Shown: one piece after another, positions 5,271 to 57,788 of the stretch
Layout: each line of letters begins with the position of its first letter
Position numbering within the stretch: the first letter of the stretch is position 1
Notes under the pieces: generated by a model
Databases searched by the model: none
What the model saw: the letters and a program-made list of their open reading frames with translations, nothing else
What the model was told of the DNA's origin: nothing
Origin: a virus
DNA length: 64,000 nt
UHGV virus genome: UHGV-0125199
Direction: 5' to 3' (one strand)
Made by a program: the position numbers and the translations under genes

Positions 5271-5507
5271 CTACATTTCTTTTACTTTAATAAACATCTT
5301 TTTCGGGAGTATTTTATTGCAGTTTATACACCTTCGTCTTCTACTACAAAATTCTGTAATATCTTCAGAAGCTCCACATGGCTCATCATTGTAATCAAAA
5401 AGCAAATCTCTAATTACTCTTTCTGTTATATAGTATCCTTTCCCTGAACCACAAAACGGGCATATTTTTTGTTCCTCCATAATTCCCCTTCGCTTGAAAT
5501 CAATCAT
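5271..5507 (-). CDS. hypothetical Zn-ribbon protein
   Basis: CPFCG...CINCN motifs. Confidence 0.4.
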   Translation of the reverse strand: MIDFKRRGIMEEQKICPFCGSGKGYYITERVIRDLLFDYNDEPCGASEDITEFCSRRRRCINCNKILPKKMFIKVKEM

Positions 5508-5553
5508 TCAATTTTCGCTGTTTACTATACTTCTTATCAATCCTTCATGACTT

Positions 5554-20987: not shown

Positions 20988-21398
20988 CTCCTATTATAAT
21001 AAGGAAAGTATACCATAAAAACAGAAGTTAGTCTAACATTTCACTATTCACTTTTCAAGGTGCATTCCTTTTGTAATTGGGTATCGCTTAGCCAGAATTG
21101 ACTTTGCTTTTCAGATATGCTACACTTTAGTTGTTTAATTATTATGTATCGTGCAGTAAATCTGTACACCCTATAACAAAAACTTAGTAACCCGTGTAGA
21201 CTTATTGACTCTGCTTTACGGTGTGCATCATGGACTTATTGACTCTGCCGTGATTGCGTTGCTTTGTTTTGATGTACTTATGGTATCATAGGTTCAACCT
21301 ATAGTCAATAGGTTTTACCTATTTTGCCACTTTTACTAAATAATGAGTGTTTTTTGTTTATTGTTGTTGTGTATTTTAAATAAGAAAGTGGTGATATT

Positions 21399-21590
21399 TT
21401 GGCATATAATGCAAAAGCAGATGAGAACTATAGAAAAAAATGTAAAACAATCGGGCTCAAATTTACTTTGAATGAATTAGCTTTTTATGAAAATATTGTT
21501 AAACATTGCGAAAGCAACAACTTATCTTTACAAGGATATATAAAAGACCTGGTGCGAAAAGATCTTAATAATGATAAGGGTATAAAATGA
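21399..21590 (+). CDS. ribbon-helix-helix (CopG/Arc-like) DNA-binding protein
   Basis: 'IGLKFTLNELAFYENIVKHCESNNLSLQGYIKDLVRKDL' beta-strand + two helices pattern. Confidence 0.5.
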   Translation: MAYNAKADENYRKKCKTIGLKFTLNELAFYENIVKHCESNNLSLQGYIKDLVRKDLNNDKGIK

Positions 21591-21853
21591 AAAATAAACA
21601 CAAGAAAAATAATAATAACCCTATAGATATACCTGTACAATCTGGCATCCATGATATTTATAAAAGTGGGTTGAGTCGTAATATAGGGACTGCTGTACAC
21701 GTTGGATATTTACACTCGAATGACGACAGGCGGCACAAGTCACGTTGTATTTATTATGATAAATCAGATAAATTATGTCATTGCGGGAAAAGTGGCTGCT
21801 ATATGATGCGATGCTGTGGCAGCTCTCATTGCACAGGTTATCGAGAGTATTAG
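21587..21853 (+). CDS. Cys/His-rich small protein, translationally coupled (ATGA) to RHH gene
   Basis: 'RCIYYDKSDKLCHCGKSGCYMMRCCGSSHCTGY'. Confidence 0.4.
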   Translation: MKNKHKKNNNNPIDIPVQSGIHDIYKSGLSRNIGTAVHVGYLHSNDDRRHKSRCIYYDKSDKLCHCGKSGCYMMRCCGSSHCTGYREY

Positions 21854-21859
21854 CTGTAT

Positions 21860-22510
21860 ATAATAAGTAGTAATGCGTTTTATGAGTGCGTAACTATAGA
21901 TTACGTGTAGTGACATGTATTGTAGGTAATATGTGTGTATGGTAGTTTTTTGATAAGTAGATATGATTGTGTTTAGTGTGATATGATGTGATTTATTGCA
22001 TGATTTATGCATGGCTGCCAGGGCATATTTTAATAAATTAGGAATCATTACTGTTATTAGTGTGGTATTGTTTTTTTGTGATGTATATTTATGTATATTG
22101 TTGATAAGTTTACACGTAGTATTAAAAACTACGTGTAGTTATATGTAATACTATATCATATAGTCGTACGAGCTATATCATGTAATTTGAACATTGTTGT
22201 TGTTAGTAATAATTACTATTTTTTATTATTAAAATTTTTCACTAAAATTCCGAACTCTATAGAATCTCTTAGAAGTCCATAGATTTTACCGCTAAAATCC
22301 CGCCCGCAAAAGAGCTGTCGTTGCTACGCAAAAAAACGTCTTTTCAAAACTTATATTGTCCATAAAATCCCTATATACCGCCCCCTGTTTTCAGATCTTT
22401 ACAATCAAAACTTTTGCACTTTTCATCAATGTGTAAAAGTCCATAAAATAGCATAATAGTGTAGTATTACACCAGTCCATAATAGGGGCGGTATTAAACA
22501 TTTTTAGCGT
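21860..22510. repeat. AT-rich repeat/inverted-repeat region (possible replication origin or regulatory hub)
   Basis: ACGTGTAGT x3 (21904, 22113/22131 as 10-bp palindrome arms TACACGTAGT...ACTACGTGTA); GTCCATA(A) x4 (22275, 22358, 22439, 22485); TATACCGCCCC (22374) inverted with GGGGCGGTAT (22495). Confidence 0.45.
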
Positions 22511-22539
22511 CTGTTGTACATCAAATATAGCAGGTATGG

Positions 22540-23026
22540 GTTCTATCCACACCTCACTACCAAAATTTCGACCTCCGATTTCAACACCAAAATTTTCATC
22601 TTCCACTTCAAAAATCCCCAAAATTACCCAAAAATACTTCGGGAACTCTCTCGACCAACAAAGCATAAACACTGCGTTTCTACCATTCTAAACAGTCCAA
22701 AAATAACCAAAATCCACCACAATATCCATTCAAACCCCAAGCAAACTCTTACCGTTACTGCATTTTCCCGAACTCAACTTATATTCCAAAAAATTACATA
22801 TAAAACACACTATCAAAATCCATAAAACCACGCCACCTTATCCCTCAGTGTGCCCACATAAATACTGGCATCTCCCGGTATAAAAACATCACACAAAATT
22901 ACCTCTCTACCGAAGTACCATATTTTCAAATTTATTAACGCAAAAAAATAAGCAGCCAATTCCTAAGATAAGTCCTTAAGAACCAACTGCTATTATTTAT
23001 AATCACCCTATAATCATAAAATACCT
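22540..23026. other. ~490-nt strongly G-depleted (C/A-rich) tract on plus strand, no convincing ORF
   Basis: long stretches lacking G: 'ccaaaatttcgacctccgatttcaacaccaaaattttcatcttccacttcaaaaatccccaaaattacccaaaaatac...'. Confidence 0.5.
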
Positions 23027-23455
23027 TCAATAATATTTATTAAATATATCCCCATCTATATCACTAATATCATGAACCGGTACCTCAGTTCCATTTTCAA
23101 ATATTACAACATTTCTGTATTCGTGTACCTTCTTCACTCTCCCACTCATTGTAATATACTTTCCACCATCTTTCTTTAAATCTTTTTCAAAATATGTGAT
23201 TCTGACATCCGGATCAACATCACCGTCATCTAAACATTTTCTTAAAATACTCAATCTCTCATTCAGCCTATCCAAAACATCCTCATCAAATTCAATCCTT
23301 TTATCTGTTAATCTTGCAGTCTCTTTAATTTCTGCATCATAACCTGTCAATGCAGCAAATGGAGAAAATTGAGCAGCTCTATCTCGCATACTCATTTGAG
23401 GATATTTTTTAGAGACAAAATGTGGCAGATCAATAATATCATCGTATTTACCCAT
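23027..23455 (-). CDS. YolD-like protein (UmuD-functional-analog family found with Firmicute Y-family polymerases)
   Basis: immediately downstream of Y-family polymerase; 'MSMRDRAAQFSPFAALTGYDAEI' YolD-like N-terminus. Confidence 0.55.
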   Translation of the reverse strand: MGKYDDIIDLPHFVSKKYPQMSMRDRAAQFSPFAALTGYDAEIKETARLTDKRIEFDEDVLDRLNERLSILRKCLDDGDVDPDVRITYFEKDLKKDGGKYITMSGRVKKVHEYRNVVIFENGTEVPVHDISDIDGDIFNKYY

Positions 23456-23464
23456 AACACACCC

Positions 23465-24988
23465 CTATGCTTTATGTCCACCAATTTGATTATTCCTATC
23501 TATTGCAGTAGCTCCTTCTTGTAGACTCATGCCTTTTAAAATTGCATTTTTCCCAAATTTTTTCTTGATATCCAAGACAGCTTTCTGAATATCTTTTTCT
23601 TTTTTAAGTTGTTCCTGGTCTACTGCATTTTCCTTTTCAGCAATCATATCAAATAAATTAAGCTGTTCATATCTATCCTTTTTCGCTTCCTTTTCGCTGA
23701 TCACATGATTTGCAGACATATTGATTCTTCTGACAAGTAAATTTTCGTCTACAATTCTACTGAATAAATCAAGCACAGCTCTTACAATCACGCTAGTAGA
23801 AGACGTATAACTATCTAAATTTACTGTTCCATGAGCATGTTTTGGAATCTTTCTCCCATATTGATCAAAAGAGAACTCACCTTTATACTTACTCATTCTG
23901 GAAGAATCTAATAGATTTTCTCTATCGTAGCCAATCGTTAATACAATCTGATCCGTTACAAGATTCTTACTAACCAAATCTAAGACCAGCATCTCAGTCA
24001 TTTCACGTACAATAATTTTCGTTTTATCAAAATCAGTTCCACAGTGTAAAACCTGTCCGCTTCCAATACTATTGCTCTCCGGCTTATATGCTTTTATATC
24101 TGAAATTGTAACCGGTTCATAACCCCATGCATGGTCAATCAAAAGCTCTGTATTTTTACCAAACATTCTACGCAGCAAGTCTTCATTATAATAATCTGAC
24201 TCTTTTCCAAGAGAACATCTTGCGATATCGCCCATTGTATATAGTCCTACAGATTCTAATTTTTTAATATACCCTCTACCTACTCGCCAAAAATCAGTCA
24301 ATGGTTTATGTTCCCATAGCTTCTCTCGATATGACTTTTCATCCAATTCTGCAATTCTCACACCATTTTCATCTGCAGGTATATGTTTGGCAACAATATC
24401 CATTGCTATTTTACAAAGATACAAATTAGTTCCTATTCCTGCGGTTGCAGTAATTCCAGTTGTATTCAAGACATCCAATATCATCTTCTGTGCAAGTTCT
24501 TTTGCGGATAATCCATACGTATTCAAATAAGAAGTCACATCCATAAATACTTCATCAATAGAATATACATGGATATCTTCAGGAGCAACATATTTCAAAT
24601 AGATATTATAAATCCTTGTGCTATATTTCATATAAAAAGCCATACGTGGTGGAGCCACAATATAATCAACTTTTAAATCCGGATTTGTATCAAGAATTTT
24701 TTTACTATATGACTGTCCGGGAAACTCATTCTTTTTCAATCGATATAATCTTGTTGCATTAATTTCTTGCACCCGCTGCACAACCTCAAATAATCTTGGT
24801 CTTCCAGATATACCATATGATTTCAAAGACGGCGTTACTGCAAGACAAATTGTTTTCTCTGTACGACTGTTGTCTGCAACAACTAAATTCGTATCCATTG
24901 GATCCAAGCCACGTTCTATACACTCTACTGATGCGTAAAAACTTTTTAGATCAATCGCAATATATGACTTATTATTCATGCAGCACAC
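23465..24988 (-). CDS. Y-family DNA polymerase (UmuC/DinB/UvrX-like translesion polymerase)
   Basis: 'YIAIDLKSFYASVE' catalytic Asp motif region; palm/finger 'SIDEVFMDVT'. Confidence 0.75.
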   Translation of the reverse strand: MCCMNNKSYIAIDLKSFYASVECIERGLDPMDTNLVVADNSRTEKTICLAVTPSLKSYGISGRPRLFEVVQRVQEINATRLYRLKKNEFPGQSYSKKILDTNPDLKVDYIVAPPRMAFYMKYSTRIYNIYLKYVAPEDIHVYSIDEVFMDVTSYLNTYGLSAKELAQKMILDVLNTTGITATAGIGTNLYLCKIAMDIVAKHIPADENGVRIAELDEKSYREKLWEHKPLTDFWRVGRGYIKKLESVGLYTMGDIARCSLGKESDYYNEDLLRRMFGKNTELLIDHAWGYEPVTISDIKAYKPESNSIGSGQVLHCGTDFDKTKIIVREMTEMLVLDLVSKNLVTDQIVLTIGYDRENLLDSSRMSKYKGEFSFDQYGRKIPKHAHGTVNLDSYTSSTSVIVRAVLDLFSRIVDENLLVRRINMSANHVISEKEAKKDRYEQLNLFDMIAEKENAVDQEQLKKEKDIQKAVLDIKKKFGKNAILKGMSLQEGATAIDRNNQIGGHKA

Positions 24989-25803: not shown

Positions 25804-26360
25804 AGTACTACTCTCCTATTCCTTTTGATATTTACATAGTAGCACAATACTATGAATTTTTATAGAAATTTTTAAATCGTTAAGAGAATTAAAGTATGAA
25901 ACAAAGAAACCGTTCAAATATTTTTAATAATAAAGGGAGAAATGATATGAGCAAATTGTAAATAATGATTTAAGAAAATAAGGATTTAATGAAGAAGCAT
26001 AAAAGAAATTATAAAAAATTTTTCTATTTCAATTTAAATTGTATCTTTGCGTCAGCAAAGACTTTGCGAAGCAAAGTGAAACGGAGACACGAAGAAAGGG
26101 TCGCCTGCGGCTCTTTCTGAAGTGGATCCAACATTACCTAGATCTCTCTATATATAAGGAATTACGAATTTATATCAAAAAAATTATTTATAAAGAGAGA
26201 ATTATTAACTGGGGGAAGGAAGACCAAATTCATAAGTCTTACTACGCACCTTGTTCGCCAAGGCTCACAATCTGCTAGTGCGACTAAATGAATTATGCTC
26301 TTTTTTGCACTTCCCCCAGACCCCCTTCGCGCACTATAAAATGGATAAAAAATTCAATTA

Positions 26361-26390
26361 AAATCTCTCTAAACCCTTATAAACACTGGG
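26361..26390 (+). repeat. 30-bp direct repeat copy 1 (AAATCTCTCTAAACCCTTATAAACACTGGG)
   Basis: identical copy at 26461-26490; degenerate copy at 33025-33047. Confidence 0.8.
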
Positions 26391-26460: not shown

Positions 26461-26490
26461 AAATCTCTCTAAACCCTTATAAACACTGGG
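26461..26490 (+). repeat. 30-bp direct repeat copy 2
   Basis: identical to 26361-26390. Confidence 0.8.
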
Positions 26491-30210: not shown

Positions 30211-32982
30211 GTGAGTAAAATTAGTAAATACGGAATTAAGATTAAAAATATAAAAGCAGGTATGATTTATGATGTAAATATTGGAGTGAGAGACTATTTC
30301 ACTTACACTGAAGCGATGTTAAATAATAGTTTGTTTAGCTATCACCTTAAGAAAAATGGTATAAAAATTTATAAAAAACCAAAGTCTGATAAAGAATCTA
30401 CGCGTGATATAATATGTTTAGACTTTGATTTTGGAAGTCGTTCTTACGAAGAAGAGAAAAAAAGACTCGAAAAATTAGAAAACAATGCAACGACAATAGA
30501 TGATAAAAATAAAATAAAATATTTACTAAAAGAAATAGGGAAAAAAGAAAAACTATACAATGGTAAAAATAGAGATAAAATCAGAGAAGATTTTTATCAG
30601 AATGGAGTAGATATTTCATATAGACACACCGATAAAAAAACAAAAAAAGAAGTTGTTGAAACAATACATTATCTTATGCTATTTAGAACGAGTGCAAAAG
30701 CTAAAGTTGGACAAGTTATTTTTATAAATGAAAACTTATATGATGATGCATACGATTGGCTTACAATCGGATTAGGAAAAAAAATGTCTTATGATAACGC
30801 AAAAATAGTTGAGATGTCTGCTTATGCACCACTTACCACATCTACTATTGTTGGAACATTAAAAATTCCGGTAGAAGACATTTTAATATTAAAAGATCAG
30901 GATTCATTTTTTTCTACATTTACGAGTGTAGTAAAAGCTGAAGAGTATATTGATAGTTCTGGAAACAAAAAGAAAAAATGTATTGTTGAATCAGAAGAAA
31001 GAGAAGTTAAAAACACACTATGGGATGGTATGGGTATTATTGAATCATCAATTTTGCCGGGATGGATAAATGGGATGGCTTTATTACGAAATCATTTATT
31101 TAAGATGTGCGGTTTTAAAGGACATGTACAATTATTCTTTAAAGATTGGTGCAAAAAAAATAATCATGACTATAATACATATCAAGTTGAAGATATGTTT
31201 GGATGTAAACATTATTTAAAAGACATCAAGATTATCACAACAGATAATTCTATAAAGTGGAAAAAATTTATTGATATTATGGGCGGAACATTATCTTCTG
31301 CTTATGAATATTGGTGTGATAAAATTCGCGAAGATGGCAACATATGGGGAGTTGTAAAAACAGATCATCAAAGTAAATTTGAAAACTCGCAGCAGTTAAG
31401 TTATCAAATGATAAACACTCTTCCGTGCACTAAAGAAGACGTGTATGACATCGCATCAGATACAGTTAAATATATCGAAACATTGAAAACAGATAATGTT
31501 GAATTTGAAAAGTTTTTACGAAAATATGCAAATGAAATAAACCATTATCAAATGTTGGCTGATTTATACAGACATAATCCTGATTTCGCCAATTGTGGAT
31601 GGTTCAGAAATGAAAAGAAAAAAATTATTTTTGAATATGTTAACAGAATGAGAAAAGGCAAAATATTAGTAAATGGAGATAATTTGACTGTCTGTGGAAA
31701 TCCTTATGCTCTTCTACTCTATTCAGTAGGTGAAAATTGGGAAGAAGATCCTACATTTTCAAAAGAAGAAAATAGTATTCAATGTTATACAAGAAGATTT
31801 AGTAACGATGAATATCTATGCGGTTTTAGGAATCCACATAATTCACCGAATAATGTATGTCACTTTCATAATGTATATAGTCAGGAAATGTCTAGATATT
31901 TTGATTTTAGCAAAAATATTATGGCTGTAAATTGTATAGGAACTGATGTCCAAGATAGAATGAACGGGGAAGATTTCGATTCAGATTTTAATCTAGTCAC
32001 TAATAATCCAGTGATGGTTAAATATGCCGAAATTTGTTATAGAGATTTTCCAACCATTGTTAATGATCTCAAAGAAAGCGGAATCACATACAAGAATACA
32101 TTATTAGAATATGCACGTATGGATAATAAATTTTCTAAATCCAGAATTGGCATTGGCTATTCCAGTAATCTTGCACAATTAGCCTTGACTTATTATTGGA
32201 CAGAGTTGCAAAAGGATAATCCTAATGAAGAACGATTGCATGAGTTATATGATAATTTTGTGATTTTATCTGTTCTTGCTCAAGTTATAATTGATGGATG
32301 TAAAAGGGAATACGAAATTGATGGAATGAAAGAAATCGACAGGATCAGCAAAATGCCATGTATGAAATTAACAAAGCAAGTAGTTGATGAAAACGGTAGA
32401 ATTAAAAGTGTTAAATTTGATTTTCCGAAGTTTATGAAATATACAAGAGCTATAAAAACAACAAAAAACGGGAAAGAAATTCCACAAAAGGAAATACACG
32501 AAAAAAAAGTGAAATTGAAAAATAGAATCAACCCATCTCTTGTTTGCCCTATGAATTGGTTAGAGGAATGCTTAGACACTATCAAACCTGCGGCAAATTC
32601 ACACTCAACCCCTATTAGTGATTTTTTTATAAAAATGCCTGGCAAACCTAATAACAGACAAATGACAAAAATTAGGAGTCTTATTGAAGAATATGACTTA
32701 TTTGTTAAAAATTTACATATAACAAATGACGATGACGATATAATAATCGAAGAAATGATTTCTAAATCCGAAAAATTATTAGACAGCCTATGCAAAATTA
32801 AAGTTGGAAATATAGTAACTATAAATAGAATGATAGAGGTGGCTCTAGGTCTCGATAAAGGAATCGGAAATGGATCCAAAACGAAGAACATAAACTTAAA
32901 ATATTCAAGAAAAATTTTAAATTATTTACACAAAATGGACAAAGATAAATTTTTATTGAATTTTAAACCAAAACAAATTTAG
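30211..32982 (+). CDS. large hypothetical protein (923 aa); candidate divergent two-double-psi-beta-barrel RNA polymerase (YonO/QDE-1-like) - inference only
   Basis: 'NRMRKGKILVNGD' (aa ~478-490, resembles beta-subunit 'RHGNKG' Lys motif), 'GFRNPHNSP' (aa ~538, cf. beta-prime 'NRAPTLH'), 'GEDFDSDFN' (aa ~586-594, cf. 'NADFDGD'). Confidence 0.35.
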   Translation: MSKISKYGIKIKNIKAGMIYDVNIGVRDYFTYTEAMLNNSLFSYHLKKNGIKIYKKPKSDKESTRDIICLDFDFGSRSYEEEKKRLEKLENNATTIDDKNKIKYLLKEIGKKEKLYNGKNRDKIREDFYQNGVDISYRHTDKKTKKEVVETIHYLMLFRTSAKAKVGQVIFINENLYDDAYDWLTIGLGKKMSYDNAKIVEMSAYAPLTTSTIVGTLKIPVEDILILKDQDSFFSTFTSVVKAEEYIDSSGNKKKKCIVESEEREVKNTLWDGMGIIESSILPGWINGMALLRNHLFKMCGFKGHVQLFFKDWCKKNNHDYNTYQVEDMFGCKHYLKDIKIITTDNSIKWKKFIDIMGGTLSSAYEYWCDKIREDGNIWGVVKTDHQSKFENSQQLSYQMINTLPCTKEDVYDIASDTVKYIETLKTDNVEFEKFLRKYANEINHYQMLADLYRHNPDFANCGWFRNEKKKIIFEYVNRMRKGKILVNGDNLTVCGNPYALLLYSVGENWEEDPTFSKEENSIQCYTRRFSNDEYLCGFRNPHNSPNNVCHFHNVYSQEMSRYFDFSKNIMAVNCIGTDVQDRMNGEDFDSDFNLVTNNPVMVKYAEICYRDFPTIVNDLKESGITYKNTLLEYARMDNKFSKSRIGIGYSSNLAQLALTYYWTELQKDNPNEERLHELYDNFVILSVLAQVIIDGCKREYEIDGMKEIDRISKMPCMKLTKQVVDENGRIKSVKFDFPKFMKYTRAIKTTKNGKEIPQKEIHEKKVKLKNRINPSLVCPMNWLEECLDTIKPAANSHSTPISDFFIKMPGKPNNRQMTKIRSLIEEYDLFVKNLHITNDDDDIIIEEMISKSEKLLDSLCKIKVGNIVTINRMIEVALGLDKGIGNGSKTKNINLKYSRKILNYLHKMDKDKFLLNFKPKQI

Positions 32983-33024: not shown

Positions 33025-33047
33025 CTAAACCCCTTGTAAATAGTGGG
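33025..33047 (+). repeat. degenerate third copy of the 26.36-kb direct repeat (CTAAACCCCTTGTAAATAGTGGG)
   Basis: 18/23 identity to core of DR; followed by GTTTT as in DR1. Confidence 0.5.
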
Positions 33048-33925
33048 TTTTCAAGAAATCAACTTCGTCCGTAATATGGAAGGATGAGAGTTTTGCTTAT
33101 ATTCAAAATTCTTGAGATGAAATCAAGACTCTTAAGACGACAAACGCTATTGCCAAAGCGTTTAATAAATATGGAGATATATCTATAATAAAGCCCCTAT
33201 TGAAAGGGGCTTGGGCTTTGCCCAATATAAGCACTTGCTTATAAATACAAATAACTCAGTGCAGATTGGCTTGTCACCATGCTGAGAATATATGAATAGT
33301 GAGTTGCGGTATAATACGATAGTTTTATACTGCAGCTTCTGGAATGATGTGAATCATAAACAGAAAGACGGAAACCGTCAAAACTAAATATATGTACAAT
33401 AATATATTGCCGTAAAACGCAATTGCCAGATCGCTGACATAATAGACGACTCCAGTGGAGTAATAATCGTGATGCCTGTATCGGTGGAATGTTACAGAGA
33501 GATAAGTAGCGAAAATCCAAATAAGTCAGTTGCGTCGTTGATCGGAAGAAATTCCAGTATAAGATCTGTCGAATGTACGAGTAGCCCAAAGTGACGTGAG
33601 ATTAATACATAAAGAACAAAAAAATTAAATCTTATTATGAATTTTCTTAATACGCTGAATGACATGGGTGAAAGTTTCTCGTAATCAGTCGAGGCTACAA
33701 TTGCTGTTTATCAGATGTAAAGGAAGTCTAAGGGTAGCTCCCTTATTCTCAGCCCTTTACAAGTAGTGGCGGAATATTATGACGATATATTTGAGTAGGA
33801 AGAAGTTCCATTTGTATTTATAATCAAGTGCTTATGCGCGCACTTGACGATTTCTAATCTCCTTTTCAGTTAGTAATAGCATTGCTGTTCTGGTAGTGCT
33901 GTTGCTAACATCTTAGGAGTATTTT

Positions 33926-33997
33926 AGCCCCATCGCCAAGCGGTAAGGCACAGGACTTTGACTCCTGCATTCAGTAGTTCGAATCTACTTGGGGCTG
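33926..33997 (+). tRNA. tRNA-Gln (anticodon TTG)
   Basis: acceptor AGCCCCA/TGGGGCT, D-arm, anticodon stem CAGGA/TCCTG loop CTTTGAC, T-arm AGTAG-TTCGAAT-CTACT, discriminator G. Confidence 0.75.
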
Positions 33998-34181
33998 CTA
34001 TCATCCGAAGTGTTGCGCTGACCGTCAATCAGTGGCGCATAAAAACCTATCCCAGTATAAATCCAGGTGACACTGGCTTATATGAAGATACGCTCTAGGT
34101 TTACTACGTTTTATATAACTATTCACATAACAATTATTTTGTCGTCCTTGTGGATGGGTGTTTTGGACGAGCAAACAATAA

Positions 34182-34277: not shown

Positions 34278-34351
34278 TGCAGGCGAGTGGAACGGATTAC
34301 TACGTCAGACCCATAATCTGAAAATACTGGGTTCGACTCCCAGGCTCTGCA
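34278..34351 (+). tRNA. tRNA-Met(CAT)-like element, probably degenerate (C33, imperfect acceptor stem)
   Basis: D-arm GTGG/CTAC, anticodon stem TCAGA/TCTGA loop CCCATAA, T-arm CTGGG-TTCGACT-CCCAG; acceptor pairs only 6/7 with a bulged G. Confidence 0.35.
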
Positions 34352-36668: not shown

Positions 36669-37868
36669 GTGGACGATATAGTACATAACTATAAAAGATT
36701 TGATGGTGAAAGTGATGATGAACTCATCCTGAGAATCTGTAATGATAAAGAAAATATCGGTACATGGAATGATGTTGCTGCAGTTCTAAACTCTCTTCTT
36801 GACTGTAACTACACTGAATCGGCATATAGAAAGAAAGTACAGTATTTCCGAAAGGTTCTTGATGCTAATCAGTCTAAATTCACAGACGGTGCAGCACAAT
36901 TAAAAGAACTAAAGGAAGAGCGTATTCTTTTAGAGAAAGAACGTGTCAAAACTCGTGATGAACGAAATGAGTATCGTAGATTGATTCGTGAAGAAGCACG
37001 TAAGGAATCTTATAAAGAACAGATTTTAAGATCCATTTCAGAATATCACGGACAACCATTAGATTATGATAAAAGAAAACAGTTTAATGGAATTTTAAAA
37101 TCAGATAATGATTTAGTAATTTCTGTAACAGATATTCATGCAGGAATTGAAATTGATAACTGGTTTAATAAATACAATACAGAAGTTATGTATGATAGAT
37201 TTAGACAGTACCTGGATAAAATTTTTGAAGTCTATTTACGGCACGGTTCTGAAAATATCTATGTAATTATAAGTGAGTTGGTCTCAGGATTGATTCACAA
37301 CTCACTTCGGATTGAAAGTAATCAAAATCTAATTGAGCAATTCTTATCCGTATCGGATTGTATTTCACAATTTTTATCTGAACTTAGTTATAAATTTAAT
37401 GAAGTTCATGTTTATGTTTGTCCTGGAAATCATTCTAGGTTACATGCAAAAAAGGAAGAATCTTTAAAAGGTGAAAATATGGACTGTCTTGCTATTCCAT
37501 TTTTGCAAGCCAAATTGCAGAACTTTAAGAATATCGAATTTCACGAAAATAAAATTGATGAATCAATTGCAATGTTTTCTGTTAGAGGAACGAAAATTTT
37601 TGGAGTCCATGGAGACAAAGATGACCCTAAAACGGTTGTGCAGAAACTATCGCTTATGACACAAATACGTCCAAATATTTTATATATGGGTCATCGTCAT
37701 GTAAATGCGATGTCTACTGTTTATAATGTGAAAATTTTACAATCAGGTTGTATTTCTGGAACAGATAACTATTGCTTGGATAACCGATTGCAAAATAAAC
37801 CAGAACAATTAATTTCAGTTATTAATAATGATGGATTAGATTGTGTGTACGATGTTAGGTTTCACTAG
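36669..37868 (+). CDS. calcineurin-like metallophosphoesterase (phosphatase/SbcD-like nuclease fold) with N-terminal coiled-coil
   Basis: 'VTDIHAG' (motif I), 'GNHSR' (motif III), 'GVHGDKDD', 'MGHRHV' (motif V/VI). Confidence 0.65.
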   Translation: MDDIVHNYKRFDGESDDELILRICNDKENIGTWNDVAAVLNSLLDCNYTESAYRKKVQYFRKVLDANQSKFTDGAAQLKELKEERILLEKERVKTRDERNEYRRLIREEARKESYKEQILRSISEYHGQPLDYDKRKQFNGILKSDNDLVISVTDIHAGIEIDNWFNKYNTEVMYDRFRQYLDKIFEVYLRHGSENIYVIISELVSGLIHNSLRIESNQNLIEQFLSVSDCISQFLSELSYKFNEVHVYVCPGNHSRLHAKKEESLKGENMDCLAIPFLQAKLQNFKNIEFHENKIDESIAMFSVRGTKIFGVHGDKDDPKTVVQKLSLMTQIRPNILYMGHRHVNAMSTVYNVKILQSGCISGTDNYCLDNRLQNKPEQLISVINNDGLDCVYDVRFH

Positions 37869-38351: not shown

Positions 38352-38630
38352 ATGACAAGATCAGATTTAATTAAAACAATTGCAGAAAAAGTAGACGGAG
38401 TAACACAGGAAAAAGCAAAAGAGATTGTTGCTGTAACTCTTGATTCAATTGCAGATGCGCTTACCGCTGGAGATAAAGTACAGTTCGTCGGATTTGGAAG
38501 TTTTGAAGTAAGAGAAAGAGCTGGAAGAACTGGACGAAATCCACAGGATGGAAGCGAAATTTATATTGAGCCATCTAAAAATGTAAAATTCAAAGCAGGA
38601 AAAGAATTAAAAGATAAAGTAAACGCTTAA
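38352..38630 (+). CDS. HU/IHF-family histone-like DNA-binding protein
   Basis: 'GFGSFEVRERAGRTGRNPQDGSEIYI' HU arm signature. Confidence 0.8.
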   Translation: MTRSDLIKTIAEKVDGVTQEKAKEIVAVTLDSIADALTAGDKVQFVGFGSFEVRERAGRTGRNPQDGSEIYIEPSKNVKFKAGKELKDKVNA

Positions 38631-39543: not shown

Positions 39544-40578
39544 GTGAGATTATTGAGTGAAGAAATTGCAAAGCGTTCAGAGGACATAACTGATGAGATT
39601 TGGAATCAGGTTAATGAATTCAATAGAGAAATGGTTCAGGATTATCTTGATAATCAAACTGACCTTTCACTAAAGACTCGTCCGGCGTATCGCTCTGGAT
39701 TAAGAGTCTTTTTTGTATATGTAAAAGATCACTTGAACAATAAAGATTTTACACAAATAAAGAAAAAAGAATTTCAAAAATATCTTAATTGGTTGACTAA
39801 TAGAGGTTTATCTGATTCAGCAATTAAATTTAAAAAATCATGTGTAAGTGCATTTTGTAATTATATAATGTTAATGTATGAAGAAGAATATCCTACATTC
39901 AGAAATTTTACTGTTGGATTAAAAGTAGTACAAACAGGATATGTTCATGAGAAAAACCCGCTGACACCGGAAGAATATTTAATGCTATGTAAAGAATTAG
40001 AAAAACGTGAAGAATGGCAAAAATTAGCATATTTAGTTTTTTCTTATAGCACAGGATGTAGACGAGCTGAGGCACGTCAACTTTTGAAAGAAGTTGTTGA
40101 GTATAAACCAAAAGAGAAAGAAACAAAAATTAAAGGTGAAGATGGTGTAGAGCATGTTGCAATTTCTCGCCAATACTTAACACATACAATTAGATGTAAA
40201 GGCGCATCGTTGGTTGGAAAACAACGTAAACTAAAATTCGGAGAAGATGCTATGTATTGGTTAAAAAAATGGATTGAAGCGCGAGGAGAAGATGAATGTC
40301 CTTATATGTTTGTTGTAAAACAAAGAAATGGAGAAACTCGTCAAGTTGGCGAGAATACGTTTAATGATTGGTGTAGTGGACTATTTACAGAAATAGTAGG
40401 TAGACGCGTACATCCGCACCTGTTTCGAGAAAGTCGCGCAACTAATCTAGTAGTTTACGAAAATAAATCTCCAGAAGTTGCTCAAAAACTTTTAGGACAT
40501 AACGATGTTAGTACAACTACAAATCATTACATAATCAGAAATGATGATTTTGACGAGTCTGATGAAGCATTCATCTAA
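39544..40578 (+). CDS. tyrosine recombinase (XerC/D / phage integrase family), GTG start
   Basis: 'CRRAEARQL' (Arg), 'HPHLFRESRAT' (HxxR), 'LGHNDVSTTTNHYI' (Tyr). Confidence 0.7.
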   Translation: MRLLSEEIAKRSEDITDEIWNQVNEFNREMVQDYLDNQTDLSLKTRPAYRSGLRVFFVYVKDHLNNKDFTQIKKKEFQKYLNWLTNRGLSDSAIKFKKSCVSAFCNYIMLMYEEEYPTFRNFTVGLKVVQTGYVHEKNPLTPEEYLMLCKELEKREEWQKLAYLVFSYSTGCRRAEARQLLKEVVEYKPKEKETKIKGEDGVEHVAISRQYLTHTIRCKGASLVGKQRKLKFGEDAMYWLKKWIEARGEDECPYMFVVKQRNGETRQVGENTFNDWCSGLFTEIVGRRVHPHLFRESRATNLVVYENKSPEVAQKLLGHNDVSTTTNHYIIRNDDFDESDEAFI

Positions 40579-40669
40579 CCATCTTTAATTTCCCATAATT
40601 TACCAGATCAATACTCTTCTATTCTGTGTTATACTGTTTCCGAGAATCATAGCACCGGAGGTTTATAGA

Positions 40670-41020: not shown

Positions 41021-41044
41021 TGGAGAGCTGTGCTGCTCTCCTAT

Positions 41045-41116
41045 TTTTGTATTTGGCTCCATGGTCAAGAGGCTAAGACATCGCCCCTTCACGGAGGTAA
41101 CACTGGTTCAATTCCA
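41045..41116 (+). tRNA. tRNA-Glu (anticodon TTC)-like, with G29-A41 mismatch and C33
   Basis: acceptor GGCTCCA/TGGAGTC, loop CCTTCAC, 'GGAGGTAACACTGGTTCAATTCCAGT' closely parallels bacterial tRNA-Glu. Confidence 0.55.
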
Positions 41117-41203
41117 GTTGGAGTCATTATTATATTCCGGCTTTCAAAAGAAATGCCGGTTTCATATCGGCAGAAAATAGAAAAAAGAAAGCGAGGGAAA
41201 ATA

Positions 41204-42121
41204 ATGGTAACATTACAGAAAATTGGTGGTGACATGAATCGTAATGTATTAGAGATTACTGGATTATCTACAGACGAAAAACCTGTTGAATTTATCGAAA
41301 CAACATACATTACCAATGGAAGCACATATGAAGAAATTGATACTGGTACAGTGTATAAATATAACGAATCTGGCAAGAAATGGATAGAGCAACCTGCAAT
41401 TGGTGGTTCAGGCGGAAATATTTCTCTTGATTATACTGCATTAACAAATAAGCCACAAATTTCCGGAATTGAATTAACTGGAAATAAAACCTTGGATGAT
41501 CTTGGTATTCAGAAAAAAGGTACTTATATTACAAAAGAAACTGATCCAACTGTACCGGCATGGGCGAAAACTGAAGCAAAACCGACATATACCGCAGACG
41601 AAGTTGGAGCCTTACCAAAAACTACGACTACACTTCCAAATCCTAAAAAGATTAAATTTACAGGTGCAGTAACAGATGAGTATGACGGTTCTGTCGAAAA
41701 AACAATTAACATTCCGACAGGAAGTTCTTATACTCTTCCACAGGCAACTGATCAGGTTCTTGGTGGTGTGAAAGCAAAAGCAAAGACAAACGAAACCGTA
41801 GAAGTTGCAATTGATACTACAACAGGCAAATTATTCGTCCCGGCTTATCCAACTGGTGCAGGAGCTGAACTTGACAAAACACTTGCTGTGGAAGGAAAAG
41901 CTGCGGATGCAAAAGCTGTTGGAGATGCATTGAAAACTAAGATTGGATCCGATGCTCTTGCACCATATATGAAGACAGTTGATGCAGATAAAAAGTATGC
42001 ATTAAAAACTGAATTACCACAAAAGGGAGTTGCTGTCGCAGACGCTGGAGATGCAGATGTCAAAGATAAATTAAATGCTTTGTTGGCAAGTCTCAGAACT
42101 GCTGGGATTATTGCTCAGTAA
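41204..42121 (+). CDS. tail-fiber-like structural protein (306 aa from ATG at 41204; track ORF 41030 start is an artefactual extension across the tRNA)
   Basis: RBS GCGAGGGAAAATA-ATG; C-terminal 'YTLPQATDQVLGGVK...LNALLASLRTAGIIAQ' shared with 55411..55818. Confidence 0.5.
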   Translation: MVTLQKIGGDMNRNVLEITGLSTDEKPVEFIETTYITNGSTYEEIDTGTVYKYNESGKKWIEQPAIGGSGGNISLDYTALTNKPQISGIELTGNKTLDDLGIQKKGTYITKETDPTVPAWAKTEAKPTYTADEVGALPKTTTTLPNPKKIKFTGAVTDEYDGSVEKTINIPTGSSYTLPQATDQVLGGVKAKAKTNETVEVAIDTTTGKLFVPAYPTGAGAELDKTLAVEGKAADAKAVGDALKTKIGSDALAPYMKTVDADKKYALKTELPQKGVAVADAGDADVKDKLNALLASLRTAGIIAQ

Positions 42122-42135
42122 ATATGTATAAAACA

Positions 42136-42162
42136 GGACGGTGCTACTGCCGTCCTATTATG
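42136..42162 (+). terminator. hairpin terminator (GGACGG-TGCTACT-GCCGTCC) after fiber-like gene
   Basis: 6-7 bp GC stem followed by TATTAT. Confidence 0.4.
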
Positions 42163-42231
42163 CTTGGATAGTTTAATGGAAAACGATTGACTTGTAATCA
42201 ATTGTTCCCAGTTCAAATCTGGGTCTGAGCT
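42162..42231 (+). tRNA. tRNA-Thr (anticodon TGT)
   Basis: acceptor GCTTGGA/TCTGAGC (two G-U), U8A9, D GTTT/AAAC, anticodon stem ATTGA/TCAAT loop CTTGTAA, T-arm CCCAG-TTCAAAT-CTGGG. Confidence 0.55.
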
Positions 42232-42272: not shown

Positions 42273-43313
42273 TTGTCAGAAGAAAAATCAACAAGAAGTC
42301 TAACGATAACAACACCAAAAGACACGACCTCTGTTAAAAAAATACGATATTCCAAAACAGATGAACCAGATTTTTATAAATGTACAGTTTGTGGGACACC
42401 GTATAAAAACTTAGATGGCAATTTTCCTGCATCTCAAAGCGAATTATACTCTGGATGGGATTATCATATTTCAACATGTAGAAAATGTCTTGACAGATTG
42501 TTTGAACATTATACCGAAGCTTATGGTGGAGATGAAGATATGGCAATACGTATAATTTGTCAAAAATATGATATTTATTACGATGTAAGCCTATTAAACG
42601 CAAGTAGAAAAATTACAAAAACAAGATCTCGAATCCATAATTACATTTCGAAATCTAACTTACGACAGTATGCGGGAAAAACTTTTGATACAACATTAGA
42701 TGAAGAAAGAAAGGGCAATGTAATTGAAAACATTGATGATTTAAAAGAAAATAAATCAAAAATAAGAATAAAGACTGTAAAATTTTGGGGAACAGGTTTT
42801 ACAGATGATGACTATGATTATTTGCAAGAGCAATATGACGATTGGACAAGTCGTCATGAGTGTAAAACTAAAACACAAGAAGAAGTATTTAAAAGAATTT
42901 GTTTCAAACAGCTAGAGATACTAAAAACCACTCGTGCAGGAAAAGATACAAAAGAACTTGATAAAACATTTCAAAATTATCTTGATACAGCTAATCTAAA
43001 ACCATGTCAGAACACGAATGCATTATCAGATGCACAAACTCTTGGAACGTTAATCCAAAAATGGGAAAATGAAAAACCTCTTCCGGATATTGATCCAGAA
43101 TTAGAAGACGTAGATAAAATTGGATTATATATCGATGTATTTTTCAAAGGTCATTTAGCAAAAATGATGGGATTAAAAAATGGATTATCTAATTTGTATA
43201 ATAAATTTATGAAAAAATATACCGTTGAAAAACCAGAATATAAAGATGACGAAAATAATGAAGCACTTTTTGATGCTATTTTCGGAAATGATGAGAAATT
43301 TGAGGATTTTTAA
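42273..43313 (+). CDS. putative terminase small subunit / DNA-binding packaging protein (by position; Zn-ribbon 'CTVCG...CRKC')
   Basis: immediately precedes terminase large subunit exon 1, stop adjacent to its ATG. Confidence 0.35.
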   Translation: MSEEKSTRSLTITTPKDTTSVKKIRYSKTDEPDFYKCTVCGTPYKNLDGNFPASQSELYSGWDYHISTCRKCLDRLFEHYTEAYGGDEDMAIRIICQKYDIYYDVSLLNASRKITKTRSRIHNYISKSNLRQYAGKTFDTTLDEERKGNVIENIDDLKENKSKIRIKTVKFWGTGFTDDDYDYLQEQYDDWTSRHECKTKTQEEVFKRICFKQLEILKTTRAGKDTKELDKTFQNYLDTANLKPCQNTNALSDAQTLGTLIQKWENEKPLPDIDPELEDVDKIGLYIDVFFKGHLAKMMGLKNGLSNLYNKFMKKYTVEKPEYKDDENNEALFDAIFGNDEKFEDF

Positions 43314-43538
43314 ATGGCTACATTGAGAAAAATGACAGAACAAGAAGTTGCAAATGAGAAAGCAGAAAGGTTAATGAACGGTATTGCTTATTGGGCAGCT
43401 TTTTACAGAAAAAACCCACAACGTTTTTGTAAAGATTATTTAAATATAACTCTCAAATTATTCCAAAAGATATTGCTATATGCAATGATGTGCAATAATT
43501 ATTTTATGTATATTGCCTCTCGTGGACAGGGTTTGTAA
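43314..43538 (+). CDS. terminase large subunit, exon 1 (N-terminus up to Walker A 'ASRGQG')
   Basis: '[35 protein letters not shown]...IASRGQG' typical TerL N-terminus; ORF stops right inside the expected G-K-S/T of Walker A. Confidence 0.6.
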
Positions 43539-44530
43539 AAATATCACGAGTGGAGGAAATAACAAATGAGTAAATATGTTTACAATAAAGATTATTTCGA
43601 AAAAATTAACACATCAGAAAAAGCATATTGGCTAGGTTTTTTATATGCAGATGGATGTATTACAAGATTTTATAAGGGAGAAGTATTAAAATCTATGTCT
43701 TTAGAAATTACTTTAAAAGACGCAGATTGTGAACATCTTATTAAATTTAAAAACGCTTTAGAAAGTAATATTCCTATTCAACATAGAATTATTACCGGGA
43801 AATATAAAGCAGATAGAATAGTTGTTAATTGCACAAAAATATGTAATGATTTAATCAAATTAGGTTGTACTCCGACTAAAAGTCTAACATTAGAATTTCC
43901 TATAAAAGATATAATACCTCAAGATTTTATAAGAGACTTTATTAGAGGTTATTTTGATGGAGATGGTGGTGTATCTTATACTGAAGGTAAATATTATAAT
44001 AATGCTAGAAAAAAATATTACAAACAGCATCACTATCGATGCTATTTTTGTGGAAACATACAATTTTTAACTGAATTAAAAAAAATATTGAATTCTAATG
44101 GAATTAAAACATCTGATCTAAAAAAAGACAATAGAAGTAATGCAATTAATATTTATATATATGGAAGAGAAAATATAGAGAAATTTAAAAATTATATATA
44201 TACAGAGGGGTGTGTGAACTTATCAAGAAAATTTGATAAGTTCTTTTTTATTTCCCACAATAGCGATCTTCATATAAATAGATAACGCCATGTTTAGCCC
44301 TGTCTAAATTGGGGAAAATCGGTGAAGACTAAATTTATTTAAAATATAAAATAAATATGTTAATACCGAGATAACTTAATAGATTTCGTAAGGCTATTAA
44401 GCATTGTAGAGAGTAGAGATTGAATAAATATAATATCTCCAAGAGTCCCCAACTACATTATTGTAGAAAATGTACTCCAAGCTGAGTTGGAAATGACCAA
44501 CTGATGAAAATGAAGGAAACTTCCAGAGCA
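43536..44530 (+). mobile_element. ~1-kb intervening sequence in terminase large subunit gene carrying a LAGLIDADG homing endonuclease ORF (probable group I intron)
   Basis: TerL reading frame resumes at ~44531 (in-frame '...DKKPMVNNILKTWLTALF...'); HE ORF free-standing with own RBS. Confidence 0.55.
43566..44285 (+). CDS. LAGLIDADG-family homing endonuclease (two-motif, single-chain)
   Basis: 'AYWLGFLYADGCI' and 'FIRGYFDGDGGV' LAGLIDADG motifs. Confidence 0.75.
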   Translation: MSKYVYNKDYFEKINTSEKAYWLGFLYADGCITRFYKGEVLKSMSLEITLKDADCEHLIKFKNALESNIPIQHRIITGKYKADRIVVNCTKICNDLIKLGCTPTKSLTLEFPIKDIIPQDFIRDFIRGYFDGDGGVSYTEGKYYNNARKKYYKQHHYRCYFCGNIQFLTELKKILNSNGIKTSDLKKDNRSNAINIYIYGRENIEKFKNYIYTEGCVNLSRKFDKFFFISHNSDLHINR

Positions 44531-46096
44531 TAGGATAAAAAACCTATGGTTAATAACATACTGAAAACATGGCTTACTGCTCTATTCTGCGTCGTTCGTT
44601 GCATATTATTCCCAGGAAGCAAGATATGCATTGCTTCTTCAACAAGACCACAAGCGAATCAAGTCCTTTTGAAAATAACCGATGATTTTTGTAAAAACTA
44701 TGGATGGGGTTCAGATAATTTGAATAATGAAATAGGGTACAAATCAGTTGGTGCGAATAATGCGGTGATTGAATTTAAAAATGGGTCATGGATAAGAGTT
44801 GTAACTGCATCTGACAGTGGACGAGGCGCACGTGCAAATATTCTAATTGTAGACGAATTTCGTATGGTTGATTTAAATGTTATTAATACTGTTCTTAGAA
44901 AATTCTTAACAGCTCCGCGCACCCCAGGATATTTAAATATAAAAAAATATTCTCATCTAACTGAGCGTAATAAAGAAATATTTATGTCCAGCGCATGGTA
45001 TAAATCTCATTGGTCATTTGAAAAAGCGAAAGCATATGTCGTGAATTTTTTAGATAATAGTAAAAAATATTTTATTTGCGGACTACCGTATCAAATAGCA
45101 ATCAAAGAAAATTTATTATCAAAAGAACAGGTTGAAGATGAATTTTCTGAGCAAGACTTTGATCAAACATCTTTTGATATGGAGATGGGATGTTTATGGT
45201 TTGGTGATACGGACGGTTCGTTTTTTACATTTGATGATTTATCTAAATGTAGAAAAATAAAAACACCGATGGAGACACATTTTTTCAAAAATAAAAAAAT
45301 ACCAGACTTAGCCCTTAATGAAAAAAGAATTATGTCTGTAGATATTGCATTAATGGGTTCTAGTAAATCAAAGAATAATGATGCAAGTTCAATTTTAATT
45401 AATAGTGCTCTTCCAACAGAAAGCAATGAGTACATTTCAAATATTGTATTCTTAGAAAATCATGAAGGACTTACAACTGACGAATTAGGAATTATTGTCA
45501 TGAGATTGTTCTATAGGTATAAATGTACAGATTTGGTAATCGATACAAATGGAGCCGGTTTAGGTGTATATGATTTTATTATAAAGAATCAGTTAGATCA
45601 AGAAACAGGTGATGTGTATAAAGCTCTTACTTGTTGTAATGATAAAGACATGGCAGAAAGATGTAAAGTCGAATCGGCAAATCCATGTATATGGTCGATA
45701 AAAGCCAATGCTGCTTTTAATAACGAGATGTGTGTTATGCTTCGTGCAGGAATACAAAATGGGAAGATCAATCTTCTTGTATCAGAATTTGAAGCAGAGG
45801 AAATATTAAGAGACAAGATTAAGTCATATTCAAAGATGCAATCTTTTGAACAATTAAAATATAAAACACCATATATTCAAACAACATTGCTGATATATGA
45901 ACTCATAAATTTACAGCATAAGATAGAAGGAACAAACATTAAAATAAAGGAAAAATCTGGTATGAGAAAAGATAGATATAGTTCTTTGGGATATAATTAT
46001 CACATATTAAGAACATTAGAAAAAAATCTTAACACAGATTCTTATTCTTCAGATTTTTCAAATTTTACCCCATGTATTTCTTCTATATCATTTTAG
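44531..46096 (+). CDS. terminase large subunit, exon 2 (Walker B + nuclease domain)
   Basis: 'ANILIVDEFRMV' Walker B; length and position; follows exon 1. Confidence 0.6.
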
Positions 46097-46111
46097 AAAG
46101 GACGGTGAATA

Positions 46112-47797: not shown

Positions 47798-47836
47798 TCA
47801 AATCTAACTTATATTTAAATATATGAAGGTGAAAAA

Positions 47837-57693: not shown

Positions 57694-57788
57694 TTATTAA
57701 TTTTGTCAAAATATGCGTAACAAAATATCTTTACTACTCTTCTATTCAGTGATATGCTTGTATTATATAATATAAGGAGGCACAAGTC

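Follow-up and report, generated by a model that had tools for sequence, protein, structure and literature searches.

Does the open reading frame at 30211–32982 (plus strand) of the virus genome UHGV-0125199 encode a single-chain RNA polymerase (RNAP), and what would such an enzyme do for its phage? An earlier note on the window (the whole stretch of 64,000 nucleotides analysed here) had seen in the 923-aa product three motifs reminiscent of two-barrel RNAPs. The reading frame is present as that note stated, all three motif strings were found, and the numbering of D588, D590 and D592 matches; the spacings of the motifs are 60 and 48 residues and not "about 55" and "about 45". The three motifs are more than a chance likeness, since composition-preserving shuffling of the protein gave a loose form of the three-motif pattern in 13 of 20000 cases, and in 1 of 20000 the eight-residue two-barrel signature described below. 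The product is 100% identical to EDN79577.1 of M. gnavus, a record labelled 'hypothetical protein'. As the sole Shine-Dalgarno-like sequence, GAGG, directly touches the GTG start, the true start may lie a few codons away. Residues 4–17 are conserved among homologues and confidently folded in the AlphaFold2 model, indicating that translation begins near 30211 and ruling out Met18, the start of a 906-aa version found in some GenBank records.

Membership of the YonO family

In a PHROG profile search, residues 27–915 of the protein matched phrog_8308 (E 4e-88), a family of which YonO is a core member, itself scoring 1220 bits across the whole profile. Compared pairwise, the protein and YonO are only weakly similar (23% identity, BLASTP E about 1e-3 to 3e-5), and membership of the YonO family rests on profiles. 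When a profile of 63 homologues (26–81% identity), the set aligned for conservation, was compared with YonO by hhalign, the match had a probability of 98.9% (E 2.1e-17, 504 columns), with KSGK, RSPH, DNDGD, IGEYSN and IDFAK all in register; the homologue from PMBT24 was matched at 98.5% by profile comparison. YonO (Forrest et al. 2017, PMC5467207) and the protein studied here are of similar size (839 and 923 aa) and share the motif order D-G, R-x4-K, G-K, R-x-P, DxDxD, IG..SN, ID.AK, but the N-terminal ~150 and C-terminal ~190 residues have no alignment, and YonO carries DNDGD where our protein has DxDSD. Pfam and NCBIfam models matched neither the 923-aa protein nor YonO, and the Pfam RdRP model (PF05183) did not match the former even at E<=10. 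Matches to PDB profiles (isopropylmalate isomerase, designed coiled coils) were confined to low-complexity C-terminal helices and were discarded. At 50% identity the YonO-type family comprises 1458 clusters, with 524 loci in IMG/VR.

Profile comparison with YonO, among the checks proposed in the earlier note, matched YonO's family, and the motif residues are conserved in homologues. The protein is very probably a YonO-type single-subunit DNA-dependent RNAP, encoded by an SPbeta-like prophage found in the gut bacterium Mediterraneibacter gnavus. It is a real polymerase, yet of an already known kind, which databases still label "hypothetical".

Catalytic residues and predicted fold

Two-barrel RNAPs share eight invariant residues, which in QDE-1 are D709, R738, K743, R962, P964, D1007, D1009 and D1011 (PMC2919709). 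Their counterparts here are D272, R293, K298, R540, P542, D588, D590 and D592, all invariant among the 63 homologues; only 24 columns of that alignment are invariant, these eight among them, and of the 123 cluster representatives that are full length, 122 keep the signature. D272, R293 and K298, equivalent to QDE-1 D709, R738 and K743, lie in a predicted beta-like double-psi barrel (DPBB-B, residues ~199–305, 30805–31125, plus strand), placed by conserved residues and the strand pattern of the model, with boundaries that are inferred and approximate. Its motifs are WDGMG (271–275, with D272 and the likewise invariant G273) and LRNHLFKMCGFKG (292–304, with R293 and K298); they align with tDGcG and RLPWVKG of YonO, and the model shows their strand pattern with confidence. 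The beta-like barrel motif expected by the earlier note is present, but it is WDGMG...LRNHLFKMCGF (271–302) and not the note's first motif, NRMRKGKILVNGD (residues 478–490, 31642–31680, plus strand).

That first motif, whose RKGKILVNGD had been read as a beta-type lysine motif, opens the second, beta'-like predicted barrel instead (DPBB-A, about residues 484–598, 31660–32004, plus strand). It aligns with KSGKLLVS of YonO, G483 and K484 are conserved in 61/63 and 58/63 homologues, and in the model the barrel is opened by strand E486–495. We take this motif to resemble the beta' 'LLGKRVDYSGRS'. Further along on the plus strand, GFRNPHNSP (538–546, 31822–31848) aligns with RSPH of YonO and supplies the invariant R540 and P542, the equivalents of QDE-1 R962 and P964, which bears out its reading as the counterpart of beta' N-R-A-P. 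The third motif, GEDFDSDFN (residues 586–594, 31966–31992, plus strand), contains the predicted metal-binding loop D588-F-D590-S-D592 (31972–31986), and its reading as the catalytic loop with Gly replaced by Ser also stands: the three Asp are invariant and the loop aligns with DNDGD of YonO and DFDGD of PMBT24. It is DFDSD and not the canonical DxDGD, but fits the looser DxDxD used in the literature as the signature of two-barrel RNAPs. Position 591 is Ser in 52/63 homologues and in 112/131 cluster representatives. Past the second barrel come long helices (residues 631–701, 32101–32313, plus strand; H631–666 and H673–695 in the model) with invariant D638, G649, D695 and K698, aligning with IGEYSN and IDFAK of YonO. 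They sit where two-barrel RNAPs carry bridge-helix-type elements, and may function as such.

The AlphaFold2 model, made with 63 diverse sequences, reached a pLDDT of 91.5 and a pTM of 0.88; a model from 23 close homologues (pLDDT 64.5) was set aside. As the earlier note had suggested, we searched the model with Foldseek. At E<=1e-3 the PDB returned 22 matches, all of them single-chain two-barrel RNAPs, the best being the eukaryotic RNA-dependent RNA polymerases RDR2 and QDE-1; beta' subunits came next. The match extends over the whole chain for QDE-1, RDR2, gp62, gp66 and gp96, and the strand patterns agree with it. In BFVD the best match was to a phage protein named 'RNA dependent RNA polymerase' (E 8e-51, TM 0.78). 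Altogether, phrog_8308, the YonO profile match, the catalytic residues and the fold support the reading as a single-chain two-barrel RNAP.

The structural relatives differ from this protein in several respects. QDE-1 and RDR2 (Pfam RdRP, PF05183) are 10–13% identical to it; they act in RNA silencing and have DYDGD, whereas the phage enzyme, with DFDSD, would act in phage transcription. The non-virion RNAPs of Thermus phages P23-45 (gp64) and P74-26 (gp62) are ~10% identical without detectable sequence homology, are shorter (about 590–616 aa) and belong to another phage lineage. Compared with the beta/beta' subunits of multisubunit RNAPs (bacterial, archaeal, eukaryotic and jumbo-phage), there is one chain here, without alpha or omega, at ~1/4 the size of the multisubunit core enzyme and with the Gly of NADFDGD replaced by Ser.

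Genomic neighbourhood

The polymerase gene is located close to the divergent switch region, with the replication arm on one side and the late arm on the other. It is flanked by a UvrD-like helicase gene and the PhoH/exonuclease genes, outside the head-tail module. The polymerase is not embedded in a giant virion or tape-measure protein: it is a stand-alone ORF, and the tape-measure-like gene is separate (61257–62471).

In its right arm the window shares synteny with the part of SPbeta whose late genes depend on YonO (yonJ, yonN, yonG, yonF, yonD), and homologues of yonJ, yonN, yomM, yonG, yonF and yonD lie downstream of the polymerase gene on its own strand. A YonJ-like gene (36669–37868; BLASTP against SPbeta YonJ E 4e-18; Pfam YonJ_N) is the counterpart of the second gene of the late operon that YonO transcribes in SPbeta. 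It is followed by a gene for an HU-family DNA-binding protein (38352–38630; PF00216 E 2e-32) that is 49% identical to YonN; in SPbeta and PMBT24, too, an HU gene follows the polymerase gene. Next comes the late packaging module (42273–49420), with BLASTP matches to yonG (2e-47), yonF (5e-141; N-terminal piece 3e-25) and yonD (3e-6) and PHROG terminase matches. The large terminase gene (the yonF homologue) is split, and Rfam detected no group I intron in it at E<=1. Thus a polymerase gene upstream of HU and yonJ/yonG/yonF/yonD-type late genes on one strand is common to both elements, but the host here is a gut anaerobe of the Lachnospiraceae, unlike the Bacillus of SPbeta.

Directly downstream of the polymerase gene lie a conserved structured element, a ROOL RNA and tRNAs, all on the plus strand, where SPbeta has yonN and then the region of the DUF3800-VIII RNA motif. 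The structured element (33067–33175), defined by covariation and a covariance model, has three helices that are 90.3% paired, with compensatory changes in 10/14 pairs; 0/500 shuffles were as good. The covariance model found it in 40/82 sources, always on the plus strand, 60–130 nt past the polymerase stop and once per locus. No Rfam family matches it, and a small ORF within it was ruled out (the window copy reads ATG GAA GGA TGA). It might act as a leader or as a promoter region. The ROOL RNA (RF03087; 33231–33828) is full length, scores 340.9 bits (gathering score 99.1), and is found at this position in loci L070, L009 and L018 as well. It is followed by a tRNA-Gln (UUG; 33926–33998); most related phages likewise have tRNAs after the polymerase gene. 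Behind the structured element, the cluster of non-coding RNAs includes the ROOL nanocage RNA, a skipping-rope RNA and tRNAs. A search of the SPbeta yonN–yonK gap for ROOL or the new element returned only the DUF3800-VIII motif, which does not resemble them.

Role of the polymerase

Experiments have shown YonO to be a processive, primer-independent DNA-dependent RNAP that transcribes the late genes of SPbeta and loses activity when its Asp triad is changed to Asn; it is made after induction and required only for late genes (PMC5467207). By analogy, the polymerase studied here most likely switches on the late genes of its phage. Its two predicted barrels (~199–305 and ~484–598) would lie in a single chain, D272, R293 and K298 of the first holding the second metal, the incoming NTP and the RNA 3' end, and the second contributing R540/P542 and the D588-x-D590-S-D592 loop that would bind the catalytic Mg2+. 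The gene would probably be expressed after induction by the host polymerase, from a rightward early/middle transcript, and its product would then transcribe the late genes downstream (YonJ-like, HU, YonG-like, terminase, portal, head, tail) without the host RNAP, in the way that YonO acts in SPbeta. For the enzyme we infer a DNA template, late-gene specificity, a promoter and a non-virion status.

Searches of the window revealed no repeated polymerase-specific promoter motif, and neither generic direct repeats nor the box CGTWATATGGAR or TAATAAATATGGAG was enriched over shuffles. A three-copy repeat, TACTCTTCTATTC..., was rejected as a polymerase-specific promoter; it resembles a standard sigma-A promoter whose -10 is TG-extended. 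A sigma-70 scan of 25.5–35 kb stayed at chance level. Since some downstream genes carry ordinary sigma-A-like promoters with a TG-extended -10, host RNAP may share in late transcription.

Could the protein instead be an RNA-dependent RNA polymerase, copying or amplifying RNA (ROOL or the leader, for instance) or making dsRNA? RDR2 and QDE-1 are its closest structures, homologues bear that name in PMBT24, TR-TP1/2 and MAG viral records, and the non-coding RNA cluster follows immediately. We nevertheless consider this improbable: YonO, the sole characterised member of the sequence family, is DNA-dependent, we are dealing with a dsDNA prophage in which the SPbeta-like synteny of the late operon is conserved, and the names in GenBank seem to stem from remote RdRP/QDE-1 profile similarity and not from experiment. 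Moreover, QDE-1 uses DNA templates too (PMC9508822).

Still less probable is a polymerase packaged in the virion and injected for early genes, like P23-45 gp96 or gp66 of crAss-like phage phi14:2. The latter is part of a 2166-residue virion protein injected for early transcription, and there is no such sign here: the 923-aa chain stands alone, with no giant virion or tape-measure fusion, its gene is placed between the helicase and PhoH/exonuclease genes, and the expression of YonO, its closest sequence relative, is post-induction and for late genes only. Finally, the Gly-to-Ser change in the catalytic loop and the 'hypothetical' annotation of the gene everywhere might suggest a relic without catalytic activity, or a structural protein keeping only the polymerase fold. 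This we find hardly credible, as the eight catalytic residues are invariant across >120 clusters at 50% identity in a family of 1458, the general signature of the field is DxDxD, and the conservation of Ser591 itself points to selection rather than decay.

The reading as a YonO-type late-gene polymerase matters beyond this phage. No smaller relatives of cellular RNA polymerase are known than the YonO-type enzymes, which serve as models for its ancestor. To our knowledge YonO is the only one characterised. The family has very many members among gut Firmicutes phages, and with no Pfam, NCBIfam or named PHROG model for it, its genes are left "hypothetical" or misnamed "RNA-dependent". The copy studied here resides in the culturable type strain of M. 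gnavus, a species tied in the literature to inflammatory bowel disease. DxDSD in most of the clade, against the near-universal DxDGD, is a natural experiment on the catalytic loop. Furthermore, the fixed neighbourhood (structured leader, ROOL/tRNAs, SPbeta-like late genes) offers targets for locating the promoter of this polymerase class. That the structured element is the polymerase's own promoter or leader, with ROOL, the skipping-rope RNA and the tRNAs as a dedicated product of the DxDSD YonO-type clade, is a rather unlikely proposal; if true, ROOL would gain a defined expression system and a phage polymerase would be tied to large structured RNAs.

Family membership and predicted fold

The polymerase ORF (30211-32982, plus strand) has a GTG start and encodes 923 aa. 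Where translation starts is certain only to within a few codons; since residues 4-17 are conserved and confidently folded, we prefer the 923-aa form over the 906-aa GenBank variant. An antisense ORF at 32280-32891 arises only from the AT-richness of the DNA. The protein gave no match in Pfam, in NCBIfam or in a direct sequence search of the PDB, and by sequence it falls outside the Pfam RdRP family. A PHROGs search placed residues 27-915 in phrog_8308 (E = 4e-88), which bears the label "unknown function". The core of this group is YonO of phage SPbeta (1220 bits, profile 2-847 of 847), whose gene lies at 21356-23875 (minus strand) of L002, the comparison locus from AF020713. Pairwise, YonO and the polymerase are weakly similar (23% identity, E about 1e-3, BLASTP). 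When the profile of A2, an alignment of 63 homologues 26-81% identical to the query, was compared with YonO, the match had 98.9% probability (E = 2.1e-17, 504 columns), and KSGK, RSPH, DNDGD, IGEYSN and IDFAK of YonO were aligned with RKGK, RNPH, DFDSD, IGYSSN and IDGCK here. The homologue in Enterocloster phage PMBT24, annotated as "RNA-dependent RNA polymerase", gave a 98.5% profile match and carries DFDGD. By sequence, the polymerase belongs to the YonO family. The family yielded >1316 matches in 90% clusters, 1458 clusters at 50% identity (E<=1e-3) and 524 loci in IMG/VR, on contigs of about 80-220 kb. Most genomic copies are from Lachnospiraceae or further Clostridia, and remoter ones from Bacillaceae.

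AlphaFold gave a pLDDT of 64.5 with 23 close homologues, and 91.5 with a pTM of 0.88 with the 63-sequence alignment. In the PDB, Foldseek returned 22 matches at E<=1e-3, all to RDR2, QDE-1 or gp62, with beta' subunits ranking next; in BFVD the best match was a phage "RNA dependent RNA polymerase" (E = 8e-51, TM 0.78), and P23-45 gp64 was also found. In its core fold, the polymerase works like QDE-1, RDR2 and gp62, all two-barrel RNA polymerases. Judged by the strand and helix pattern of the model, the first barrel would span about residues 199-305 and the second about 484-598. Long helices (631-695) follow the second barrel, and D638, G649, D695 and K698 are further invariant residues of this region. 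The earlier note had proposed a single-chain two-barrel RNA polymerase, and this is supported by the YonO profile match, with motif residues conserved in homologues, by the fold matches and by the eight signature residues described below. The enzyme is of a known kind, to which the analysis adds the scale of its clade among gut phages, the lack of curated models and the DxDSD loop.

Catalytic residues

Eight residues are invariant in every two-barrel RNA polymerase (Ruprich-Robert and Thuriaux, PMC2919709); in QDE-1 they are D709, R738, K743, R962, P964, D1007, D1009 and D1011 (PMC2919709). Their counterparts here are D272, R293, K298, R540, P542, D588, D590 and D592, with the same R-x4-K spacing as in QDE-1. 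Only 24 columns of A2 are invariant and all eight residues are among them; 122 of the 123 full-length cluster representatives carry the signature. The three strings picked out in the earlier note are found at residues 478-490, 538-546 and 586-594, and its numbering of D588, D590 and D592 is correct. When the protein was shuffled 20000 times, the loose three-motif pattern arose 13 times and the full eight-residue signature once; with the residues also conserved in homologues, the motifs are not due to chance.

One assignment had to be changed: RKGKILVNGD, originally read as the beta-type lysine motif, is actually the first strand predicted for the second barrel, the beta'-like one, in which RNPH and DFDSD also lie. 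It resembles beta' LLGKRVDYSGRS. The lysine-bearing motif of the beta-like barrel is WDGMG...LRNHLFKMCGFKG (residues 271-304). The glycine-to-serine replacement seen in the catalytic loop (DFDSD) holds across most of the clade: Ser591 is present in 52 of 63 A2 sequences and in 112 of 131 representatives, where Gly occurs in only 6. As serine dominates, DxDSD is a signature of the clade. The looser DxDxD is also used in the literature, and a literature search found no mention of the DxDSD variant.

Non-coding features around the polymerase gene

Directly after the polymerase gene lies a conserved element of ~110 nt (33067-33175, plus strand) with three covarying helices. Paired cells make up 90.3%, compensatory changes occur in 10 of 14 pairs, none of 500 shuffles equalled it, and a hairpin loop, UAUUGCC, is kept. 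A covariance model found the element in 40 of 82 sources, always once per locus, on the polymerase strand and 60-130 nt 3' of the stop (for example L010 5289-5369, L097 5902-6047 and L105 5815-5888), including loci whose polymerase is only 40-53% identical. It had no match in Rfam. Loci without it keep the first box, GTWATATGGAG, which looks like the ribosome-binding site of a downstream ORF.

A full-length ROOL RNA (RF03087, 340.9 bits) follows at 33231-33828 (plus strand), 249 nt after the polymerase stop. ROOL has the same position and orientation in 3 of 19 other related viral loci scanned (L070, L009 and L018), and was found at the polymerase in none of 17 genome loci scanned; in most other related viral loci its slot is taken by tRNAs, which lie within 2.4 kb downstream of the gene in 15 of the 19. 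The ROOL-context literature found mentions prophages and tRNAs, not a polymerase gene. In L020, sequence at ~5450-5540 resembles the ROOL 5' end (AACTCAGTGCAGATCGGTTAGTCACC), with a tRNA about 90 nt further on; it gave no ROOL match from Rfam and may be a ROOL remnant. L100, from an uncultured Clostridium genome, has another phage-associated structured RNA in the ROOL slot, 3' of the polymerase gene and conserved element: a skipping-rope RNA (RF02924, 6330-6410, plus strand, 61.5 bits). In SPbeta, a DUF3800-VIII RNA motif (47.5 bits, minus strand) lies just upstream of yonK, at L002 19409-19474 (AF020713 59409-59474). The window also carries, on the plus strand, tRNA-Gln (33926-33998), tRNA-Glu (41055-41126), tRNA-Thr (42162-42231) and a weak tRNA-like match (34279-34351, 33 bits) not called by ARAGORN. 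As the mechanical ORF 41030-42121 overlaps tRNA-Glu, its real start must be later. Based on the fixed arrangement of gene, element and RNAs, it is possible that the polymerase drives the downstream RNA cluster.

An exact 30-nt direct repeat, its copies 100 nt apart (26361-26390 and 26461-26490), lies in the divergent intergenic region and includes CTAAACCC-N11-GGG. A hairpin like it (AAACCCCTTGTAAATAGTGGGTT with a T run) lies at 33027-33049, after the polymerase stop and before the conserved element. AAACCC-N7-15-GGGTT has 2 sites, against 0.06 matches expected with both strands counted, and may act as a terminator or operator, or belong to a promoter. Another repeat, TACTCTTCTATTC.GTG.TATRCT, precedes GGAGG-ATG starts at 40612-40635 and 57735-57758, and more weakly at 25809-25832; it resembles a promoter for host sigma-A, with a TG-extended -10, inside the late arm.

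Prophage setting and proposed role

The polymerase shows 100% identity to several proteins of Mediterraneibacter (Ruminococcus) gnavus, including ATCC 29149, among them "hypothetical protein" EDN79577.1; its gene lies on contigs >1 Mb and is therefore that of a prophage. Two arms make up the phage genome in the window. The left (minus) carries replication genes, including a DNA polymerase and sliding clamp; the right (plus) carries, in order, a UvrD-like helicase, the polymerase, the non-coding RNAs, PhoH, a YonJ-like protein, HU, a tyrosine recombinase, a YonG-like protein, the large terminase and more head and tail genes. A transposase (103-1035) and a second tyrosine-recombinase-like gene (7999-9114), both on the minus strand, also lie in the phage region. 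A BLASTP comparison of SPbeta proteins with every ORF of the window identified plus-strand homologues of yonJ (36669-37868, E = 4e-18), yonN (HU; 38352-38630, E = 1e-25, 49% identical; PF00216, E = 2e-32), yomM (tyrosine-recombinase-like; 39544-40578, E = 7e-57, 34% identical), yonG (42273-43313, E = 2e-47), yonF (large terminase; 43314-43538 and 44546-46096, E = 3e-25 and 5e-141) and yonD (47837-49420, E = 3e-6). The right arm is thus syntenic with the YonO-dependent late region of SPbeta. An HU gene accompanies a YonO-like gene in SPbeta, PMBT24 and the window. About 1 kb with an endonuclease ORF (43566-44285, plus strand, phrog_4645) interrupts the terminase gene at the exact boundary of YonF residues 89 and 90, leaving a 74-aa and a 516-aa ORF. 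The split resembles an intron or homing-endonuclease insertion; Rfam gave no group I intron there at E<=1.

YonO is a processive DNA-dependent RNA polymerase, and its deletion in SPbeta silences 37 late genes (PMC5467207). An RNA-dependent polymerase would agree with the GenBank label and with the best structural matches, but we disfavour it because of the biochemistry of YonO and the synteny with a dsDNA late operon. An early polymerase packaged in the virion is disfavoured because the protein stands alone and is encoded outside the structural module. The invariant catalytic residues, and the conservation of Ser591 as well, speak against an inactive relic. [quoted passage not shown] Host RNA polymerase would probably make it from the rightward transcript after induction, and it would then transcribe the late genes. 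No repeated promoter candidate for the polymerase was found in the window. Given the sigma-A-like promoters at some downstream genes, host and phage polymerases may share the late region.
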